From Podarcis cretensis (Eukaryota): 64,000 nucleotides of DNA. Below are positions 19,331 through 53,095 of this stretch, piece after piece. Location of the stretch: the NCBI GenBank assembly GCA_951804945.1, contig OX638153.1, forward strand, positions 80,104,001 to 80,168,000. Direction: 5' to 3'. A program made the position numbers and the translations under genes. Below the pieces are notes generated by a model. It was given only the letters and a program-made list of their open reading frames with translations. It had not been told where the DNA came from and made no database searches. Every line of letters starts with the position of its first letter. Within the stretch, counting starts at the first letter, position 1.

Positions 19331-19975
19331 AATCATAGAATCATAGAATCATAGAGTTGGAAGAGACCACAAGGGCCATCGAATCCAACCCCCTGCCAAG
19401 CAGGAAACACCATCAGAGCACTCCCGACATGTGGTTGTCAAGCCTCTGCTTAAAGACCTCCAAAGAAGGAGACTTTACCACACTCCTTGGCAGCAAATTC
19501 CACTGTCGAACAGCTCTTACTGTCAGGAAGTTCTTCCTAATGTTTAGGTGGAGTCTTCTTTCTTGTAGTTTGGAACCATTGCTCCGTGTCCGCTTCTCTG
19601 GAGCAGCAGAAAACAACCTTTCTCCCTCCTCTATGTGACATCCTTTTATATATTTGAACATGGCTATCATATCACCCCTTAACCTCCTCTTCTCCAGGCT
19701 AAACATGCCCAGCTTCCTTAGCCGTTCGTCATAAGGCATTGTTTCCAGGCCTTTGACCATTTTGGTTGCCCTCCTCTGGACACGTTCCAGTTTGTCAGTG
19801 TCCTTCTTGAACTGTGGTGCCCAGAAGTGGACACAGTACTCCAGGTGAGGTCTGACCAGAGCAGAATACAGTGGCACTATTACTTCCCTTGATCTAGATG
19901 CTATACTCCTATTGATGCAGCCCAGAATTGCATTGGCTTTTTTAGCTGCCGCGTCACACTGTTGGCTCATGTCAC
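19331..19975 (-). mobile_element. CR1 LINE 3' fragment
   Basis: ORF 19413..19970 is the CR1 ORF2 C-terminus ([33 protein letters not shown]); (ATTCTATG)n tail. Confidence 0.97.
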
Positions 19976-20042
19976 TGTTGGTGGGTTAGTGCCCCATTTG
20001 CTAATGAACCAGCCTCCACTGCTACATTATGACGTTTTCATT

Positions 20043-25013: not shown

Positions 25014-27082
25014 TTACAGTCTCAGGAGAAAATAGATTTCTGGTTTATCGTCTTCGCTTGGCTTGGTCTCTAAAAGAGAATCATCTGTATAAAACCGGTC
25101 ATGGTACCCGTAGCGCAATGATGTGCATGCACCCTCCGGAACCCCTCGGTCCACCAGATTGTCCGTATTGAAGTTATCCAGATAGCTTGCTATATAAGAG
25201 CCAGTGGAATGTCTGTTGATAATGTGAGGAGGTACAAGAGGCTTATTTCTAAGGACTACCTCTGCTACATTACTGCTAGTGTTAGAAAGTTTCTGCTTAT
25301 TGGCTTCCTGTCGCTCCCTGGCACGACTAGCAATGTTTCTCACTCTGCTCTGACTCCTGGATGACAGTTTTCTCACCAACATTTTAGGGCAATCGTCGTC
25401 CTGCTTGTTACAAAATGACTGGCAGCTGTCTTCCTGATCAAAGGACACTAGCTTTCGTAACTGTTCCGTCAGGGAATCTGTAGCCTGTGGTTTCTTAGCC
25501 TTCAGAGCAGTCACCATCTTGTCTCTCATGCCAGATGTAATGAAACCTCTGCTGATATACTTGTACTTGCTTTCAAAATTGCACGAGATGTCTTCTGATG
25601 TTAAGTCTCCAAGGCTCTTGGATTTACAAGGACTTGGTTGTTTCTGAGCCGAGGGAGAAGGCAGAGAATTCTTAAGAGCAGGAGAGTTCTCCACGTTACC
25701 TGTTGGAGAGATGTTCAACAATTCATTTGGGGTGTCTGAAATGTGCAAATAATTATTGTACAAAAGATCAACACACTGATGTTCTGGGTAAGGAAGATGT
25801 TGGTTCTTCTTGCTCCTGAACTTGAAGTCTTCAAGTAGGTTGGTGGTGGAGAGATGCTCGCTGGTTAGGTTTCTGCAAATGGAACTGTCATAGCACAGAG
25901 TGTCCTGATTATGCTTAAGTTTCAGAGGAGAAGCAACTTGGCTCATATCTTCTCTCTTATATTCATAGGCAGTTATCAAGAGGTCCTGCAGCTCTCCATC
26001 AACTTCCATTAGGCTGCTGCCTGTAGAATTTACACAAGTGAAAGGGACAACGATTGTATGTTCCAAATCTGAGCTGTCTGAGATGCAAGAGTTGCTATTG
26101 CTAAGAGAGTTCCAGTTGGCTCCACACTTCCTTTTAGCGTTTGCACTTAGCCCAGGTGAAATGCAAGAAAACACTGGATAGGTATCTTCTGCAACATATT
26201 TTGCGTCCTTGCAAGGAGGTTTGCCAACTGATGCTTGGTGAGAGGCTGGAGTAAGAGAGGCCTCGTGGATAATTGTGTACAGCGAACACTCTGTTGTCTG
26301 AGGGGTTGATATCATAGTAATTTTGGGTGCTGATCCGATTGGCATTGCACTGGGAGACTTGTGGTCAAAAGATGTATTCTGATCACTTGGAGACATATGT
26401 GGTACATGTGCAGGCTTCCTATTGTCAATCTTTTTGCTAATTCCAGGAGGACTCGGAACAACAGTCAAATTAGTTTGGTCATTTGTGACATCAAACTGTC
26501 CTATCAATGCTGAGACAGAACTGCCCACATCACTCTCATCTGCTAAAGAGACCTCACTGATCAGATGAGAAATGTCACTATCTTGTATGGCTGGTATAGA
26601 ATGAAAGTCACGGACATCACTACAGGTAGGTGAAGATACATCAGGTAGTGGGGAATTGGCTATAGTACTATTTACTACTGCATGAGATCTAACGCTAGTT
26701 ACTTCTTGATGTCCTGGAGAAAGAGAATTTCCAGCTACTGGTTCTCTCTCTTTGCAAAACAGAGCATCATTCAACATCTTTTGACCCATGCAACATATAC
26801 CTTCATTCTTGTCCCTTTCAGGTTCCTCCTTTGGGTGAACAGATTCGCTGGAAAGATTACTTTTCCAATACTCTGTGGAAAAATAGGTTTCAGCGATCCC
26901 AATGGCAAAGTCTAGGCTTTCCAGCTTTTCATACACAGGTGAGCTCACATAAACGCCAGCTTCGATGGCCTCTCTTTTAAACGGAGATGAAAACTTTGCA
27001 AAAGAGAAATCTTTCTCAGGAGAAGAGGTGACCGCTTCTTTCAGGTGTGGTTGGTCCTCTTTGGTAGCTTTTTTACTTTTTG
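25014..27082 (-). CDS. PLCH1: PLCH1 terminal coding exon (Ser/Pro-rich tail ending DDKPEIYFLLRL*)
   Basis: attgatatAG acceptor at 27083, in frame (44 codons upstream) with ORF-track 25014..26948; conserved blocks KSKSLGDLTSED, LVRKLSSRSQSRVRNIASRA, NRHSTGSYIA. Confidence 0.96.
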
Positions 27083-27378
27083 CTATATCAATTTAAAAAC
27101 AAAACACAAAAACAGTAGTTAGGAAGATGCTCATCTACCTGTTTATGGCTACATTTTGTCTTGGAATAGGTAGATGGAGAATGTAAAAATCGATCACAAT
27201 TGTGAAAGGACTTAATTATGGGATTGTGCAAGTTTAGTACAAATTATTCATGTGATATGAGGAAATGAGAAAATATATAGCACTTCATTGAAGCTTTTTT
27301 TTAATGTTTCATTACATCACTGCGGGCGTGATGTAATATTTGTTGCAAAGAATGTCAATGAGGTACCATAACCATTAC

Positions 27379-28988: not shown

Positions 28989-29465
28989 TAAAAACTAAAA
29001 ACCACTAAAGTTGATAGAAATGCTGGTGTATTCCCAAGATATTCCTTACTCTTGCGTTTGTTGTAACTTTAAATGAGTAAGAAATAAGCAGAATCTAATT
29101 ATTTATGGCTACTGTGGTTATCAGAGGTTAGATATACCAGGAAAGAAAAATAAATAAAGCCCATTTGCTGTCCTGCAGCCTGATACTGAATTTATTCTCG
29201 TATGGATAATTTAAGGCTCACCTATACCTATACCTATGCCTATGATATGTTGAAGATTTTCTCCCTGACACCACGGGCAATAGGATTTAACACTTTTACA
29301 TTAAATAAAAAAATAAAAACAACATTCATCAAGATTTCCTAGAAACTAGGTAAAAGTGCAACTATTACCAAAAAAATAATAATCAAGAGTCGGAATCCAT
29401 GAAAGCTTGAATACATGTATATGTTTTTAAGAAGCATTTATGAGGCCTCTATAGAAGGAACTTAC

Positions 29466-29832
29466 CAGAAGTATTTTCAGTTTTGGTGGTGTCATCAACA
29501 GGAGGTGCCTCCTGATCTGGTGATGGCAAGCCCACCAGATGGTATTTGTCAACCGGCATGGAGATGGGACGTGCCTGCAAGCTTCTACTCGTACGCCTCA
29601 GGATCTCTTCCTTCTCTTTCAAATTGGTTGCCTCAGACAAACTCTCCTTAAGCTCCGTCACTTCCTGAAACCCCATTTTGCTCTTCTTCCTGCCCTTTGC
29701 TGGCGCGCTGGCAGTGCGTCGGAGAATACGTTCCCCAATTGACCTTTTCCGAATATAATTAGCGCTGTTTTCCACAGAATTATGCTTGGGGTTCTTGTGA
29801 AAGAGCCCTCGGAGCCCTATCAGTTGCTTGTT
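29466..29832 (-). CDS. PLCH1: PLCH1 penultimate exon, NKQLIGLRGLFHKNPKHNSVENSANYIRKRSIGERILRRTASAPAKGRKKSKMGF...TENTS
   Basis: ttcttttttAG / GTAAGT; 367 nt, phase 0/1; PLC-eta RILRRTASAP motif. Confidence 0.96.
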
Positions 29833-30428: not shown

Positions 30429-31843
30429 CTGAAAGGCAAAGAAAGGCACAGAATGATGGGCTAAATTTCCATTAATTTGGTCACATTGAAAACAACAGGA
30501 TACATCGTGTTTGTCATAGAATTATGGGTAGCCAACATGGCGCTCTCGGATGCTGTTGGATTCCATCAGACCTGAACATCTGGCTATAACCCCTGATCTT
30601 CCCGTTTTAACTCTGCACCCTACTCAGAACTAGAGGCTGGTAGATCTTTGGCTTCTGAACACCCATTTATACATCACCTATTTAAAATAAGCCCTGAGAC
30701 AACGTGCCAAAGTTCTGTGTCCATGCAGCAACAATAAAGGAATCTCCACCAAGCAAGGATGCGCCAGGGGAAAGAGAGTTACTCAAAGCCACAAGACTTG
30801 AGTAACAAGGAACAAAAAGCAGCAGCCTCAAGCTCTAGGTAGACAGGAGAGAAACATAAAAGGGAAGGAAGGGTGTGCCATAAATCAACAGCAGCCATAA
30901 ATTCACTGTACCAAACAAACACTGTTTTATTTGACAATAAACCACGTCAACCAAGCAAGGTGGATAAAGGGGTCTAACCTCAAAATTCCATTGTCTAAAA
31001 TCTGGTTTAATGAGAATAGAGCGGAACTATCTTGTAGTCCTGAAGGGCATCAAGTAATAGCTGGCAATTTTTATGGTTCCAATAGTAAACCTATAACAGG
31101 TACAGTAGGCCAGGCCCTCCAGATGTTGTTTGACACCAGCTTCCATCCACCCAAGCCAGAGGTTGTGGGAATTGTAGGCATCTATAATCATCAACAACAT
31201 CTGGAGGGATGTCTGCAGGAACTGCATGCCACAGTAAATCAAGTAATCTCTAGCTCTCCTTACCCACTGAGAGTGAAAGACAAATTTATGATTTCAGATT
31301 ATGAAGCTGGGAAGGTCAGAGATCACTTGTGCCTGACTCATAGCAGGTGTTCGGTTGTAACAATAAACCATGGTTATTGTTATAGGAATGAGCCTAGGTG
31401 AGCCTTGGGTTAACTCGTTTGCCCACCTCTTCCTATAATTTAACCACAGTTGAGAATTACATTCAAACCCTAAACTGTGCTTAACCTAGGATTCACTGAA
31501 ATAAGCCAGAACCATAAAACCAAGGTTCAAAGGAGACTTGTTTCAGTAAAACATAATCAAGATTTACCACAATTTGTGAAGGTTTTGATAAAATGAAGGG
31601 GGGAGGACTGTGGGAAAACAGAAGCAAAAGCTTCCAGTCTCCTCCTTGTGGTTCCACTCGAGAAGGTGGAGGTTGCAGATAAGCCTGAGGTTCACCTAGG
31701 CTCATCCCTGTAATAACAAACCATTGTTTATTGTTACATCTAAATGCAGCTATTGGAAGAAAGTCTATATAGGTGCTTGAGCAAAGGTACTTGTCTGGAG
31801 CTATTGGAAAAAGAGGATTTTGTCCTCTAATGTTGTAGCTAGA

Positions 31844-32300
31844 TGTCAGGGAACTGCCATCAGTACTGGAGGGAGAGTGCAAAAGCCAGAGGGATTCCAG
31901 AGAGCGTCCAGGGATCGGGAGAAGCAGCCCATCTTCTGGGGAAGAGAATCAGCGTAGCACCAGTGGAGAAGGGGGGCAGGTGGGGGAAGTGGTGAGGCGG
32001 TCCCATGACTCCTTGCCTGGGACCAGCGGGGAGAGTAGGGGTCCTCCGTTGCCCACGCCCTCCCTGCGCAGAAGGCTTTCGCGCAGAGAGGGTAGGCGGA
32101 GACTAGGCGTCAAAGTGCTTCTTTGCTGGAAGAAGTTTAAGAAACGCCCACTCACGGATTCTGCCAGCGACTGAGTCAGCCACGGGTGAGTGGCGGTCTG
32201 GACAGATAAGGTTCACTTTGGCAGCCCAGCCAGGTGTTTGCACCCAGCCAGGGAGATAGGTACCTGCTTATGCACGAGCAACCCCTTAGAAACCACTACA
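31844..32300. mobile_element. Solo LTR (457 bp) with embedded ORF
   Basis: TG...CA ends; 5-bp TSD CTAGA (31839-31843 / 32301-32305); homologous to 36618-37049. Confidence 0.88.
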
Positions 32301-33824
32301 CTAGATGACATGGTTTCCAGGCTTCTGTTACAGGCGTGCCCCCTCCTGTAAGGCAGACTAAGACTCTTAGTTTGACCTACCAGTGCTCACTAAATTGCAT
32401 CCAGTTATTAATGGTGTGGCCTTCATTAAAATATATGAGCTGAGCATAAAATATGCATTCAGCCTTCTGTCAAAAGAAACACTGCAACATTTAAGCAAGA
32501 AGATAATAGACACTGGTGGGTTTTACCAGACTGATGCCTAGTACCGGGAGGAAAAAATCAAGTCCCCAAATCCCAACTTACTGATATAGTAATTGGTATG
32601 AAAAATATTGACAGAAAAGCTCCCTTTTCTCATTTTAAAAATCCTTTCTGTTAATTCACCCCATTGCATTTCTCTGATTGTGTCACAATCTTATAAGGAT
32701 TCTCGAATTGCTAGTAGCAAGCTGCCTTATATTCAATCATGCCACTGGTCCACCTAGCTCAATATGGCATGCATGGACTGGCAGCAACTCTGCAGGCTTT
32801 GCCAGCCGAATCTAATTTGCCAGGGGTTGAACCTGGGACTTTCTGCATGAAAAGCGTTGGTTTTCCAGCTGAGCTACAGCCCCTCAGCTATAAAAAATAT
32901 TCATCCACATGAAAAAAACGAAAAAAAGACCCAAGGCAGAAATTATGAAAAAGCTTGATTCATGAAGATGACTTTTTGCCATTTTAAAACTTGGAGCAAG
33001 TTTGTAAATCTCCCATCTTCTGAAACAAAACGGAATAGCAGCAGCTTTTAATTAAGATGCATCCAAACTCAACCTCAAAAGAAAATCAATTACCTTTAAA
33101 AACTAAACCAAAACCCCAATTAAGACTGCTGCAATATATAACTATATCCAGTACTTAGATGAGAAGCAAATGCCATAGAACCCTCTTCTCTCAGGAAAAA
33201 AGTGAATTCCTGCTGAGGGTCGCTTCCCAGTCTTGCAAACCATTGAACTGGCTCCCCCAGTGGTCGCAAACAGAGATAAGGAAAATTAATTAATTTATTA
33301 GAGAAGCTGGAACATTACAGTTGGGGCAAGGCATGGGCCGACTTCAGACCCATGACACACAGCAGGATCTAGGGGATAGGGCTAACTAGCAAATTTTAGG
33401 TAAGCCCCTTATATATTAAAGCCCCTGGGTCCCCACAGCTGAAGAGGGGCTACAGACACTGACTTTTAAATAATAATGTATACTTTGGAAGCACAGTAGT
33501 GAACTAAGCAACTCATTCATGGGCGGTCAAAACAGGATATTGGACCAGATGGACTTTGAGCCTGATCCAGAAATACTGTTCTTATGTTTTTATGTTTGGG
33601 GTGGGAGTGGGAAGATATGGCAAACATTAGAGACAGGATCGCATACATTAAAAATGGGTAACTTGTTTTCTAATAATAAAAAAAACTCCTGACGTTCCGT
33701 TTACTGCTTGTTTTGTAATTTTACGCCATATTCTTTTAATATGCTACTCTTCTTCTGCCACCTGCGTGGAATAATGTTGGAAGTTGCCCTGAGGGCTCCT
33801 TTAGAGAAGAGGCATGGTATATTT

Positions 33825-33979
33825 CAGGGATGTCCAACAGGTCGATCGCGATCTACTGGTTGATCAGGGGGGCAGTCCATAGTTGATCACAGTTGATCAC
33901 TCAATCCAATGGGTAGATCACTCCCAGTTTTTTTTATAGTGGGAGTAGACCGCAGTGTCTTGAAAGTTGGACATGCCTG
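33825..33979. mobile_element. hAT MITE
   Basis: TIR CAGG(G/C)ATGTCCAAC; 8-bp TSD gtatattt. Confidence 0.88.
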
Positions 33980-34503
33980 GTATATTTTATTTCCCAGATT
34001 CATCACCGTTCATTATATGTTATGTTTCTCAACACAAGATTTTTAAAAATTATTATTTATTAAATTAGTATACTGCCCTTCATCTGAAGATCACAGGGTG
34101 GTTCACGACATAAAAATACAAAATGGGAATGCAAAATACATAATGAAACAAAAACAAACCGATAACTAACGCTGCCATAAGCATATTTAAAGGGTTATAG
34201 AACGCTAATCAGGCAAAGGCCTGGTTATAGAGAACCATTTTCACCTGGTGCCTAAACATATGTAATGAAGGTGCCAGGCCAACTTCCCTGGGGAGAGCAT
34301 TCCACAAATAGGGAGCCCGTTCTCATGTTGCCACCCTCTGGACCTCTCATGGAGGAGACACATGAAGAAGGGCCTCAGATGATGATTGCAGGGTCTGGGT
34401 TGGTTCATATGGAGAAAGGTGGCCCTTGGGGTCCTGAGAATAAAACCAACAAATCCAGAAGACCACACTGCAGGCTGCAAAATGGCAACAAAATCACCCT
34501 TAC

Positions 34504-34583
34504 CTTTCCATAAATTTCATTGATTGTTACATGAACAAATATAGAAGCTTCAGTCAGTCCCTCCAAATAAACATGACGGTAGC
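34504..34583 (-). CDS. PLCH1: PLCH1 exon (end of C2), YRHVYLEGLTEASIFVHVTINEIYGK
   Basis: ccaccAG / GTAAGG; 80 nt, phase 1/0; GYRHV.L motif. Confidence 0.97.
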
Positions 34584-35223
34584 CTGGTGGAAGTGGAAAC
34601 CAGCAATTAGTATTTGGTATGTCAAGATGCTACCTCACCAAGCTATGCATGTTAATATAGGATATACAGGCCTGCTTTAGGTGGCTGAGGATAAGACAAG
34701 AGAATGATGAGGCTTGGGCTTATTCTACCTTCCCCTTTGTACACATGAGACATTAGGCAGAAAATGTGAAGCCTGTGCTTTTCAAGGTTGTAAAGGCACA
34801 AGCAATAATGGCTATGTCCACATCCCAGGGAAAAAGACTGCACTCCAGTCTAGGCACAACTAGTCGAGGCGCAAACGTCTGCAGCATAGCCTGAATGTCC
34901 AGGGACAGAAGGACTAGGGAAATGGCCATCAAAGACATCAGTTGAAAGAATCCCCACTCAGTCCTGGTCACAAAGTCTGCCACACATAATGACTTGACTC
35001 GGCTTCCTACTCTGATGTAGACTGCTGTTTTTCCTTGTTTGCCCATGCATTTCCTTCTTTCCAACAAAACCCCACATCTCAAGCTTCATGAGCAGAAAAC
35101 AAACCTAGTTAGAGCCCCCTGCCTTCCAATCCCACAAATTTACAGGACCAGCACAAGCTGAGACATGTTGTAATTTCACCCATAGTGCCAGCCTATCAAA
35201 GATAGGTAAGCAGAGGCACTAAC

Positions 35224-35370
35224 CAGGCATAAGGCTGCTGAAGGCGACAGTCCTTTGTCCAACAAAGTCTCGGCCGATTGGATCATGATCCCAAACAAGA
35301 AACCGAACCAATGCTATCTCGGGCATGTGGATGTTGAAAGTGAGAGTTTCTTCCCACACAGGATTAAACC
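35224..35370 (-). CDS. PLCH1: PLCH1 exon (C2), FNPVWEETLTFNIHMPEIALVRFLVWDHDPIGRDFVGQRTVAFSSLMP
   Basis: cttacAG / GTTAGT; 147 nt, phase 1/1; GFNPVW...VWDHD..GRDFVGQ. Confidence 0.98.
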
Positions 35371-36329
35371 CTGTAAGGAGCAGAGAATACAAGTAGTCAA
35401 GTGCGGGAAGAGAAACAAGTCATTTAAGTACTCGCCCTGTTAACAAACCACCGAATGAGTCTACGCTGAAAGCCCAAGGGGTGTCTTACTTTGTGTTGGG
35501 TTATTCCAGCTCTGAGTCTAGTACCTGAAAATTACGGCATCCCCGAAGAATACAGAAATTGGCAATTCCTGTTATCCTGCCTTCCATTCAAAAATAGAGG
35601 TAATTTCACCCACCAGCTTAAAGCCTCATGAACACTGTAATAAAGTCTGTGCATTACAGTATATTCATCATCTTCTTTTTTTAAGTTTATAAGCATGTTC
35701 CTTGACCCTGGTGCATGGCCAAATTGAGGCAAAAAAACAGATGCAACGTGAGGCACTAAAGGTCAATTCACAAATTATACTACTTGCGAATTGTGTTCTC
35801 TTTTACACTATGCAATTTTTTGAAATATGCTGTTACCCCATAATTGCTGTCAGTACCTACCAAGTATTATCATGAAGCATCAGACACTGCTCTGGTGCTG
35901 TGCCTGAACAGGACACCTCGTCACACGTCAGACATTTCCCACTCAACATGAGAAGGTTGTTGATATGAGTGGGTTTGACAATGCGCACTCATACATTAGG
36001 AGTGGCGCTTGTGTGCACAACCCATGGACATTTTGGAGCATTTCTGAGCTCGGGCAAAAACCTGTGGTCTCAGGTCAATTCTAGCAATAGGAGCCAAGAT
36101 GAAAGTTCAACTAGTCCATTCCCACAATGCTCAAAAACACTCCAGTAGGTACCCAACTAACATAAAGAGGTTAAGTGCACAGTGTCAGTCTGCATGGAAT
36201 GAAAAGTTGCATCCCCTTTGCCCCACAAATACAAAGGGGACATGATTGGAACCACAGTGGGACAGGGCGCGGACCAAATTCTGGGGCCAAATAATGCCTA
36301 AGGCTGGCCCAGCCACAAGATACCCAGTA

Positions 36330-37200
36330 TTGACTATATGGAACTTGCCAAACTGACTGGGAGACTCCAAGACCAGAGAGAAGAGACGGTGGAAGATGAT
36401 TGGAAGAAGTTTAACGACTATTTGAAAAAAATATGTTAATATTTAAATCTTAGAATAGCTTTGGAAGTGGATATAGGCTGTAGGGTTAGAAGTAGAAGAT
36501 AGCGTGTTTTAAAATAGTATTTGTAAGTGATAAAATGTGAAGATTTTTATGGTAAAAGTAAGCGTGATAAAAAAAAATGGTTAGAAATTATGATATATGT
36601 AAACTGCTAAAGATGAGTGTCAGGGAACTGCCATCAGTGCAGGAGGGAGAGAGGAAAAGCCGGATGGATTACAGAGAGCCCCCAAAGATCGTGGAAAGCA
36701 GCTCCTCCTCGGCGGGGGAGAGTAACCATGCCTCCAGTGGAGAGGAGCTGCAGGGTTCGGAGGAGGCGAGGCGTTGCCAGGACACCTTGCCTGGGCAAAG
36801 CGGGGAGGGGAAAGGTCCACCGTTACCCATGCCCTACTTGTGCAGTAAGGTTTCGTGCAGAGAGGGGAGGCGCAGACTGGGCGTCAAGAAATTACTTTGT
36901 TGGGGAAAGTTTAAGCCCCGCCCACTCACAGACTCTGCCAGTGAATGAGTCAGCCACGGGAGAGTGGCACTCCGGACAGATAAAGTTTATTTTGCAGCAA
37001 AAACAAGGCTTCACAGCTGAGCAGGGAGCAACCCCTTGGAAACACAACAATGAGGTAAAATGAAAATCAGATAGGGGGACTTGGGGAAGCTCACCTAACA
37101 ATGTTTAGAAAAAAATAAGGATAAGACAAGAATTTGTTTGTATTGTTTGTTTTTCTGTTTGTGTTGTTTAGTTGTGTTATAAAATGAATAATATTTTTTT
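36330..37200 (+). mobile_element. L1 3' fragment (host of the LTR at 36618-37049)
   Basis: DYMELAKLTGRLQDQREETVEDDWKKFNDYLKK resembles the squamate L1 ORF2 C-terminus; AT-rich 3' UTR follows. Confidence 0.65.
36618..37049. mobile_element. Solo LTR (432 bp), same family, inserted in an L1 3' UTR
   Basis: TG...CA ends; TSD ATGAG (36613-36617 / 37050-37054). Confidence 0.88.
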
Positions 37201-40288: not shown

Positions 40289-41233
40289 GAGATCTTGCAG
40301 AGCCATAATCCAAGCTCTTATTTTTACTATTGGAAATTTGTTTCACTTGTCTGTTCTAAATATCAGCGTGTTGCTTAAAATGTTTATTTATGTTTGTTTG
40401 TTTTTCAAATTTCTATCTTGCCCTTCCTCCCAAAGGAGTCCAGGAGAGCAAGCAAGAAAGTAGTGCAATTAAACCTAAAATAAAAACATGTTTGGAACAT
40501 CTAAAAACATCGAAAACACCTGAACACATCTCTGAAGACATAGGCTCACAGCTGAACAAGGTTTGCAGGAACAGTTTCTCTCAGCCACCAAATGCCTGGG
40601 TGAGCGGAAATGTTTTTAAACTCCTCCTGAATGTTAATGAGGGAGACAGATGCCCCCCAACAGGGAGGGCAGTCCACCAATTTTCTAACATGTACTTCAC
40701 ATTAAAGAGTTAAGTAGCTGCTTCACTGCACCACGCTGTCAAGAGGACAAATTTTATTAACGAACCTTTCCGTCCCTCCAGGGTGCAATCCAATGTGTCA
40801 TGAAAGGTGAACAGAAAATGCAGTAATGAGACCAAGTGTTGAGTAAACAGAAAAGACGACTATGTGAGCAGGGTTCCTTCTCTAGCTGCATTAACGCTAT
40901 AGAGAAGAGATATGCCTGTACTCATAAGCCCCCACCCTTTGTATTTTGAACATTATGAAACCGTAAAGATACAAATTATTGCAAACTCCCAAGCCAGAAA
41001 CTTTCAGGGAATATGTCCCTAAATCATTAAACAGAAATGCATGGTGAATTTCACAATTTAGCCTTCAGCGCAGTGATAAATTAATAAGATGTTTATCCCA
41101 CACTAAGATAGCAGCTGCGGGTGAATAAAATTCAGGTGTGTGCCACACATATCCTTAAGAAGTGCTGTAGGCAATGTGCACATCCATACTCAGAGAATGG
41201 AAAACCACAAAAGCTATCATCAACGTTGTTTAC

Positions 41234-41358
41234 CTCTCCTCTGTCTCCTAACACTGAGTCCGGAGGTTTCGGTAGCTGCTGCCCACTGATGATTTTGAGG
41301 AGAAGTTGCTTCTTAGGGAAAGCAGGCAGTGGATCTGTAGAATAGGGATTGAATGTCC
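41234..41358 (-). CDS. PLCH1: PLCH1 exon (start of C2 domain), TFNPYSTDPLPAFPKKQLLLKIISGQQLPKPPDSVLGDRGE
   Basis: ccctctAG / GTAAAC; 125 nt, phase 1/0; C2 IISGQQLPKP motif. Confidence 0.97.
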
Positions 41359-41584
41359 CTAGAGGGGGCAAAGAGTACAGAAGGGTACAGTCCTTCAGAT
41401 AAGGAGTTATGCGTCTCTTACACACTTCTAAATAAAAGCAGGCAGTCAACAAGTAACATACAAATTCAACTATGCAATGATCCCCATACCCAGAATTTTC
41501 TTCTTCTTTTACTTTGGGGGATGTGTTTGCCTGCCAATCTGGATGACTGCAGGTACTTCACATACACAATTCATTGGCTCTGAC

Positions 41585-51104: not shown

Positions 51105-52935
51105 ATAGAATCATAGAATCATAGAGTTGGAAGAGACCACAAGGGCCATCGAGTCCAACCCTCTGCCAAGCAGGAAACACCATCAGAGCACTCCTGACAT
51201 ATGGCTGTCAAGCCTCTGCTTAAAGACCTCCAAAGAAGGAGTGTTTGCTTAATGATCTGCTCCAGAATCTTCCCTGGTATTGATGTCAGACTGACTGGGC
51301 GGTAATTATTTGGGTCCTCTCTTTTCCCCTTTTTGAAAATAGGGACAACATTTGCCCTCCTCCAGTCTGCCGGACTTTGCCTGTTCTCCAGGAATTCTCA
51401 AAGATGACTGCCAGTGGTTCTGAGATCACATCTGCCAGTTCTTTTAATACTCTTGGATGCAGTTCATCTGGCCCTGGAGACTTGAATACATCTAAACTAG
51501 CCAAGTATTCTTGTACTATCTCCTTAGTTATTCTGGGCTGTGTTTCCTCTGCTGAATCATTTGCTCCAAATTCTTCAGGTCGGGCATTGTTTTCTTTATC
51601 GGAGAAGACTGAGGCAAAGAAGGCATTGAGGAGTTCAACCCTTTCTGTGTCCCCTGTTTGCATTTCACCATCTTCTCCTCTGAGTGACCCCACTGTTTCT
51701 TTGTTCTTCCTTTTGCTATGAACATACCCATAAAAGCCTTTTTTGTTGCTTTTAACCTCTCTAGCAAGCCCGAGTTCATTCTGTGCTTTAGCTTTTCTGA
51801 CTTTGTGTCTACACGTGCTGGCTATATGTTTGAATTCCTCTGTGGTGGTTTCCCCCCTTTTCCATTTTTTGTACACATCCTTTTTTAATCTTAACTCAGT
51901 TAAAAGTTCTTTAGATAGCCACCCTGGCTTCTTTAGGTACCTTCCATGTTTCCGTCTCATTGGTATTGCCTGAAGTTGTGCTTTTACTATCTCCCTCTTA
52001 ACAAACTCCCAACCATCATGAACTCCCTTTCCTTTTAGTATTACTGTCCATGGGATCTCAGCCAGCACTTCCCTAAGTTTTATGAAGTTGGCTTTCTTAA
52101 AGTCAAGAAATTGAGTCCTAGTATGCTTGGCTGCTCCTTTCCGCTGTATAGTAAACTTCAGAAGAGCATGATCACTTGCGCCTAATGATCCTTCCACTTC
52201 TACCCCACTAACCAGGTCATCAACATTGGTTAGGACCAGATCTAAAATGGCTGTTCCTCTTGTTGCTTCTCCCACTTTCTGGACAATCAAGTTGTCTGCA
52301 AGGCCAGTGAGGAATCTGTTTGACCTTATGCTCTTGGCTGAGTTTGACATCCAACAAATATCCGGGTTATTGAAGTCCCCCATTACTACTATCTCCCTTC
52401 CTTTTGCATGCTTGGCCATCTGTTCCAGGAAGGCATCATCTATGTCCTCCGTTTGGCTTGGGGATCTATAGTAAACTCCCACAATGAGGTCACTGTTATT
52501 CTTCTCTCCCTTAATTTTGACCCAAATGCTCTCACTTTGGCTTTGAGGTTCTAAATCTTGGATCTCTTCACAGGTATACACATCCCTGACATATAACGCC
52601 ACTCCTCCTCCTTTCTTGTCTGGTCTGTTTCTCTGAAATAGATTGTATCCCTCCATTATTACATTCCAATCGTGGGACTTATCCCACCAGGTTTCAGTGA
52701 TGCCTATTATGTCATATTTAGTTTCCTGTACCAAGAGCTCAAGCTCATCTTGTTTATTTGCCATGCTTTGCGCATTAGTGTACAGACACTGAAGTCCATT
52801 AATCATTCCCCCGTGTCTCTTATTTAAGGATTTTTTCCTCCCACCACTAGGTCTGCGTGCTGTTTGCTCCATTTGGTCTATGACATTTGGATGATCATCT
52901 TCATCAATTGATAGACTCCTACCTTCAGGAGCACG
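51105..52935 (-). mobile_element. Young CR1 LINE: ORF2 endonuclease plus start of RT, internally deleted, with 3' tail
   Basis: ORF 51286..52962 with CR1 APE motifs (LYTNAQSM, GITETWWD, VVMGDFN, LDLVLTN, SDH) and KSPGPDELHPRVLKEL; frameshift near 51375; ATTCTATG octamer tail at 51105-51124. Confidence 0.97.
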
Positions 52936-53095
52936 TTTCCCCACAAATGTTTCAGATTGCAAGCCCCTTGGAGGTTGGGACTTGTCATACCTGTTCTATG
53001 TAAAGCAATATGTACACAGAAGCCGCTCTAGAAATAAAATAATAATTATTATTATAATCATGCAAAACATAGGTGGAAGTTTTAGCTCTGCTTAC

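Follow-up and report, generated by a model that had tools for sequence, protein, structure and literature searches.

A lizard Gypsy chromovirus whose pol frame extends into its 3' long terminal repeat and may end in a host-docking tail

Two solitary long terminal repeats (LTRs), A and B, in a 64,000-nucleotide stretch of the Podarcis cretensis genome (contig OX638153.1, positions 80,104,001 to 80,168,000; hereafter the window) share an open frame of 109 codons, which raises the question of what this frame once encoded. With good confidence, we read the two solo LTRs as remnants of a Gypsy chromovirus of lizards. Its pol gene crosses the polypurine tract and continues for 109 codons into the 3' LTR, where it specifies the end of the integrase tail, likely a nuclear-import and host-docking arm.

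The LTR frame and the pol gene

The features of the two LTRs are as follows (TSD, target site duplication; dN/dS, ratio of nonsynonymous to synonymous divergence).
31839..31843: left TSD of LTR A, CTAGA; right copy at 32301-32305
31844..32300, plus strand: solo LTR A of a Tf1/sushi-type Gypsy element, 457 bp, TGTCAGG...ACA
31845..32039, plus strand: LTR A, first 65 codons of the pol tail, a low-complexity Ser/Glu/Gly/Arg spacer under weak constraint (dN/dS 0.56)
32040..32174, plus strand: LTR A, last 44 pol codons and stop, with a Pro motif, an Arg/Lys block, the LLCW..F helix and PLTDS
32150..32160, plus strand: LTR A, 11-nucleotide self-primer sequence within the last codons; it is the complement of the primer-binding site found in full-length copies
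36613..36617: left TSD of LTR B, ATGAG; right copy at 37050-37054
36618..37049, plus strand: solo LTR B, 432 bp, of an older sister subfamily, with a private 23-nucleotide deletion near the 3' end
36619..36948, plus strand: LTR B, the homologous 109 codons and stop; conserved part 36814-36945, self-primer position 36924-36934

An earlier note on this DNA had described the LTRs as independent insertions, and each is indeed flanked on both sides by its own 5-bp TSD. Its account of the frame also holds: it is open from the second LTR base to a TGA at the same position in both copies, the peptides are identical at 69 of 109 residues with the first 400 aligned columns ungapped, and the codons that differ among the last 29 comprise nine synonymous and four nonsynonymous ones. 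The 25-nucleotide length difference reported beyond the stop is real but consists mostly of the 23 nucleotides deleted in copy B and present in its relatives; because this deletion is peculiar to one copy, the contrast between an indel-free frame and an indel after it is weak for the window pair. Similarly, TGAGTCA overlaps the stop in both window copies as stated but is not a family-wide feature. It occurs in one of 24 other copies, the remainder having TGAGACA, TGAGGCA, TAACAGG, TGAACGG and other words in its place. An AP-1 site as the cause of the stop position was rejected.

An initial genome search produced 2911 candidates with LTR A and 1250 with LTR B as the query; 40 of each were scored. 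Among 30 LTR A loci, five are 3' LTRs that follow the same purine tract, two are 5' LTRs and the rest are apparently solo; at least 100 open codons are kept in 26 of them, and the frame is open in 19 of 30 LTR B loci. Two LTR A matches 5.6 kb apart bound a 6.1-kb two-LTR copy, L031, which has its own TSD and LTRs that are both 95-96% identical to LTR A. Pfam identified gag (capsid, CCHC), protease, reverse transcriptase (RT), integrase and SH3 in L031. The copy is disrupted by an insert resembling a long interspersed nuclear element (LINE), by frameshifts and by a stop within the chromodomain; at L031:4000-4260, RNase H is interrupted by an opposite-strand, poly(A)-ended insert similar to a LINE 3' end. 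Nevertheless, a single frame of 240 codons links the end of the chromodomain to the stop in the 3' LTR.

A genome search with these 240 residues placed 14 of the 150 matches listed in stop-free frames of 1269-1351 codons. One such frame contains protease, RT, RNase H, integrase, SH3_Tf2-1 and Chromo domains (Pfam) and ends in the LTR motif. The order of the element is gag, protease, RT, RNase H, integrase, SH3 and chromodomain, then an acidic stretch of about 100 codons and finally the LTR part; the pol order protease-RT-RNase H-integrase and a CCHC gag were found by Pfam in copies L093 and L031, the chromodomain lies at the integrase C-terminus (PF00385, E 4e-10), and pol, in the -1 frame, overlaps gag. 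Two pol models in UniRef, P0003 and P0004 from Podarcis muralis, terminate in the same tail. Because the 240-codon frame of L031, the long pol frames and the UniRef models all run into the LTR tail, the LTR frame almost certainly represents the last 109 codons of pol, that is, the C-terminal end of the integrase tail. For LTR B, the tie to pol is a presumptive one, made through homology alone.

The earlier note had placed the start of the frame in the internal region of a squamate LTR retroelement and proposed to classify the RT and to look for a continuation past the polypurine tract. The full-length copies belong to a lacertid Gypsy chromovirus, not to an endogenous retrovirus, and the frame is continuous with upstream sequence in L031 and in the long frames. 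What continues, however, is pol itself, in frame with the chromodomain, rather than an extra open reading frame of the nef, sag or bet kind as had been suggested.

Neither LTR peptide matched a Pfam family. PDB sequence searches with the motif profile, the tail profile and the Anolis tail returned nothing meaningful, a protein atlas gave no usable match to the full tail or its last 49 residues, and no RNA run carrying the tail was listed in a search of sequencing runs. A profile search over 1.84 billion representatives yielded five matches, all of this kind, two of them named Podarcis. In two Podarcis muralis models the LTR peptide is joined to other proteins: a phospholipid-transporting ATPase ends in it (P0008) and a Gla-domain model starts in it (P0208). 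These fusions are probably annotation artefacts and possibly cases of exonisation.

No tRNA-type primer site follows the 5' LTR. Instead, 11 bases in that place are complementary to 11 bases in the LTR codons for P-L-T/A-D-S, the pair being perfect in 10 of 14 two-LTR copies, reduced to 10 nucleotides in one and imperfect in three; it exists in three versions that covary on both sides. In Tf1/sushi elements, the 5' end of the RNA itself serves as primer (10.1101/2022.12.06.519325, PMC6317226). By this pairing, the RNA 5' end would lie at window position 32150, eight codons before the stop. An RNA start so near the end of the frame would make U3 wholly coding, so that the promoter must overlap codons of the tail, with the LLCW/VLNW codons as a possible site of one promoter element. 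Two further observations concern the same region: a Trp codon starts exactly 23 nucleotides before the self-primer in both this family and a second one described below (window 32127-32129; LTR of copy L157), and some subfamilies have an AT-rich word near -30. With neither a start codon nor, on this prediction, an RNA start upstream of the frame, a solo LTR should be unable to yield the peptide. Of the two copies of the 109 codons in an active element, the one in the 3' LTR alone would be translated. Pol runs directly into the 3' LTR, and no space is left for env.

The integrase tail and its FxGF motifs

Between the chromodomain and the LTR, outside the window, the tail contains two motifs of the form F-(8-9 acidic residues)-FxGF. 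A TND-interacting motif (TIM) consists of a helix, an acidic linker of 8-16 residues and FxGF, the latter being needed for LEDGF and HRP2 (PMC9987994); the published forms are FxGF and [E/D]xExFxGF (10.1101/624023, 10.1101/2023.01.30.526367). With our search pattern, 11 of 13 tails had two matches, one had a single match and one had none; of 100000 shuffled sequences, 17 had a single match and none had two. The pattern had no match in any of the six frames of the window. As a host control, the 70 kb upstream of two CDCA7-family zinc fingers contained three coding-strand motifs with linkers of 8-10 residues; one gene has two of them and the second gene a single one. The spacing of the retroelement motifs equals that of these host LEDGF-binding motifs, and the W/F anchor residues before the linker are kept in 23-24 of 24 copies. 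Complex predictions for Podarcis LEDGF 400-497 with motif 1, for which alignments were unused, scored 0.26 and 0.25, below the mark of 0.34, and were counted neither way. Judging from sequence, we give the binding of these motifs to LEDGF/HRP2 an even chance. A literature search that lacked most subscription papers showed no report of an FxGF motif or TIM in a retrotransposon or of the lizard tail, and lentiviral integrases are the only examples that PMC9987994 names in its section on viral mimicry.

The chromodomain upstream of these motifs is altered. In a comparison for which 30 of 46 rows were aligned, the aromatic residues of the methyl-lysine cage are present in one of six lacertid chromodomains at site 1 and in none of six at site 3, whereas other elements have them in 24 of 24 and 23 of 24, respectively. 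Loss at sites 1 and 3 corresponds to what has been described in plants as type II (PMC6317226).

FxGF following the GPF motif was found in nine of 83 pol homologues, namely eight lizard models and one close relative. The remaining 74 lack it; among them are two models from snakes, of which one is truncated, and two from catfish, besides fungal and plant proteins. In an RT-integrase tree of 28 rows, built without the named sushi-ichi and Amn references, the element falls in one group with those of snakes, Anolis and catfish (SH-aLRT 98). A second sushi-type family in the same genome (L157-L160, for instance G000:C5:341661-348220) is 63% identical in RT-SH3. It has a 759-bp LTR, with 210 pol codons inside the LTR in three of four copies and the 11-nucleotide pair in all four, and its pol ends in a basic block and V-L-x-W. 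The pol frame comprises 1563 codons, and the chromodomain is more degenerate. The LTRs of a pair are identical and near-identical copies are numerous; this family looks very recently active. The lizard genome holds many near-identical young insertions of related families. An Anolis carolinensis family (P0183, P0211, P0217) is 48% identical over RT-SH3. Pfam detected no chromodomain in it, and its pol runs about 140 residues beyond the likely purine-tract junction and carries one near-textbook LEDGF-type motif, very like that of the host's single-motif CDCA7-family gene. The motif block occurs at residues 28 and 1020 of model P0217, i.e., at both ends, which suggests that it lies within the LTR. 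It is tempting, albeit tentative, to propose that squamate sushi-type elements exchanged the histone-reading cage of the chromodomain for host-mimicking FxGF hooks onto LEDGF/HRP2, with the chromodomain gone in an Anolis family and the motif apparently lying within the LTR.

The predicted fold of the 208-residue tail is disordered except for a helix at residues 188-199 (mean pLDDT 51). The LTR spacer varies between 55 and 65 codons among subfamilies. The basic C-terminal block noticed earlier in the LTR peptide is confirmed; in copy L066, 14 of the last 44 residues are Lys or Arg. By analogy, these 44 residues may act as a nuclear localisation signal or a DNA-binding helix, and the integrase tail as a whole is likely a disordered nuclear-import and host-docking arm. 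PP1 (RVxF), HP1 (PxVxL) and BET-binding motifs were compared with the last 44 residues by eye and did not fit. In the mechanism that we propose, the integrase would be released with a disordered tail of about 200 residues, in which the acidic docking motifs are followed by a free spacer and then by the basic end. The FxGF motifs would take over from a chromodomain devoid of its methyl-lysine cage and tie the integrase to the TND of LEDGF/HRP2 in gene bodies with H3K36 methylation, and the basic end would bring the complex into the nucleus or hold DNA.

Selection on the tail and competing explanations

Selection was assessed on 28 loci with an open frame of at least 400 codons ending at the LTR stop, of which 24 were kept (one was too short and three were duplicates). 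Nei-Gojobori estimates were made over 191 pairs among four subfamily groups, with intervals from column resampling. Along pol, dN/dS is 0.05 in the integrase end and SH3, 0.27 in the linker, 0.10 in the chromodomain, 0.11 in motif 1, 0.16 between the motifs, 0.05 in motif 2 and 0.43 in the spacer. Within the LTR, it is 0.56 (0.37-0.83) over the first 65 codons and 0.17 (0.08-0.29) over the last 44, where dS is 0.81 and dN 0.14. Masking codons seen once altered these values little. The window pair taken by itself gives 0.96 and 0.28, respectively.

The earlier note had inferred purifying selection while the element was active and called for a six-frame comparison. Selection is indeed evident, mainly on the last 44 codons, whereas the first 65 evolved nearly freely. 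The low value of the last 44 is specific to the pol frame: the other five give 1.56 and 1.75 (shifted plus frames, which carry stops in 19 and 23 of 24 copies), 0.98, 0.34 and 2.71, the value of 0.34 belonging to the antisense frame that shares third positions. Furthermore, 22 of the 44 residues are invariant among 11 copies, with more than one codon used at 18 of them, and the tail motif is kept in the more distant LTRs P0207 and P0209. We consider it very probable that the last 44 codons function at the protein level. A count of gaps in multiples of three at the DNA level (59 of 102 in coding sequence, 32 of 113 beyond the stop) was noisy and subject to open-frame bias and was not used.

Several observations weigh against the reading proposed here. 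A full-length subfamily B copy was found neither among the 30 LTR B loci, none of which has internal sequence, nor among eight further long-frame loci. The 24 copies were picked because their frames are open, and the pairs lack independence. Our search pattern was written post hoc, after these sequences had been seen, from the definition in PMC9987994; motif 1 codons are near-invariant among the 24 copies, motif 1 reads L/M-EGF in three Podarcis models, and the single FxGF of the second family has a Ser/Thr linker and misses the pattern.

Three alternatives were weighed. The tail may be functional while FxGF binds another TND protein (IWS1, TFIIS, Elongin A, MED26 or PNUTS) or serves protease processing or folding, an explanation that we do not favour but take seriously. 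Related motifs are read by several TND proteins (PMC9987994). The strict [E/D]xExFxGF form occurs in 15 of 24 copies, in motif 1 only and never in the window's subfamily A, and no helix precedes either FxGF in the isolated-tail model, where confidence is low (pLDDT about 50). In favour of LEDGF/HRP2 are the special requirement of these two proteins for the FxGF part (PMC9987994) and the spacing shared with the host CDCA7-family motifs.

An improbable alternative is that pol merely reads through into a purine-rich LTR, the conservation stemming from promoter and self-priming signals and the peptide being a tolerated appendage. The nearly neutral first 65 codons agree with it, and four of the 22 invariant residues are also invariant at the DNA level. 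The self-primer overlaps PLTDS, and the Trp codon keeps its 23-nucleotide distance upstream of it in both families. In addition, dS is lower in the LTR (0.6-0.8) than in most of the internal region (1.0-2.1), with 0.5 in the spacer to the polypurine tract, so DNA or RNA constraints act there too. Set against this alternative are the frame-specific excess of dS over dN in the last 44 codons, the several codons used at most invariant residues and the persistence of the motif in the far more diverged P0207 and P0209. A separate U3 accessory protein comparable to nef, sag or bet, produced from a start of its own or a spliced RNA, would likewise have an open frame with a conserved end but is very unlikely, since the frame joins pol without a break in each 3' LTR that was examined, the LTR frames have no common start codon, as the earlier note had recognised, and the RNA start is predicted at the frame's end.

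Host locus and comparison with known systems

Both LTRs sit in introns that flank a phospholipase C exon and are antisense to that gene.
35224..35370, minus strand: exon of the host gene, lying between the LTRs and encoding a phospholipase C C2 domain
Exons of this gene, which we take to be of the eta type, lie on the minus strand at window positions 25014-27092, 29449-29832, 35224-35370 and 41132-41557; the last exon has 692 codons, and three of the four have no Pfam match. The presence of both LTRs, 4.3 kb from each other, in introns of a single gene agrees with gene-body tethering but is no proof of it. Elsewhere in the genome, a PSIP1 exon shows 99% identity to its Podarcis muralis counterpart, which places the host among the lacertid lizards. 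Sequence resembling the L031 insert lies directly left of LTR B (about 36340-36610), and long minus-strand frames at 51286-52995 and 19413-19985 resemble, by eye, remnants of CR1-type LINE endonuclease and RT.

The family and the extension of pol into the LTR are of known kinds, and earlier vertebrate Tf1/sushi work (Butler et al. 2001) or repeat-database entries may already note that pol enters the LTR. The lizard element resembles Tf1/sushi (V-clade) chromoviruses in domain order, the chromodomain at the integrase end, self-priming, a 5-bp TSD and the -1 overlap of pol with gag that is usual in this group, and its LTR ends match the Sushi motifs TGTYANR..CNTNACA (PMC3601003, Table 3). It differs from these relatives in lacking cage sites 1 and 3; the fish and fungal relatives found end no more than about 30 residues past the chromodomain, whereas the lizard element adds about 200, half of them inside the LTR. 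UniRef entries for 'Gypsy retrotransposon integrase-like protein 1' from Podarcis muralis and Anolis carolinensis have the same pol and the same tail; they are automatically named, and the tail, its LTR location and the motifs are unannotated in them.

Plant CRM group A elements are a precedent for pol entering the 3' LTR (PMC3059260). In CRM, however, the CR motif replaces the chromodomain and tRNA-Met primes synthesis, whereas the lizard element, of a vertebrate and not a plant clade, has a degenerate chromodomain and a self-primer. Since the chromodomain and priming differ and the LTR peptide has no Pfam match, the likeness looks convergent. Retroviruses with nef, sag or bet are set apart by the continuity of the lizard frame with pol, by its self-priming binding site and by the lack of room for env. 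A wholly coding U3 with an RNA start inside the last codons would be a compact case of dual coding in a vertebrate.

Ty1 integrase also has a long disordered C-terminal tail (PMC8487063), which holds a short host-binding segment (PMC10050235), but its partner is Pol III. The lizard motifs resemble the TIM/IBD-binding motifs of JPO2/CDCA7L, IWS1, KMT2A and JIL-1 in their hydrophobic end, their linker of 8-9 Asp/Glu/Ser/Thr residues and FxGF, and they stand in tandem as in the two-motif host CDCA7-family gene. Unlike cellular TIMs, they reside in a retrotransposon integrase, conform partly to the acidic pattern and helix, and have a binding activity predicted from sequence. LEDGF is the integration tether of lentiviruses (PMC9987994). 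If the FxGF motifs bind LEDGF/HRP2, the lizard retroelement would mimic a cellular motif rather than a lentiviral surface. HIV integrase binds LEDGF through its folded part and not through an FxGF mimic; the tether used by HIV would then have been reached by a different, peptide-mimic route.

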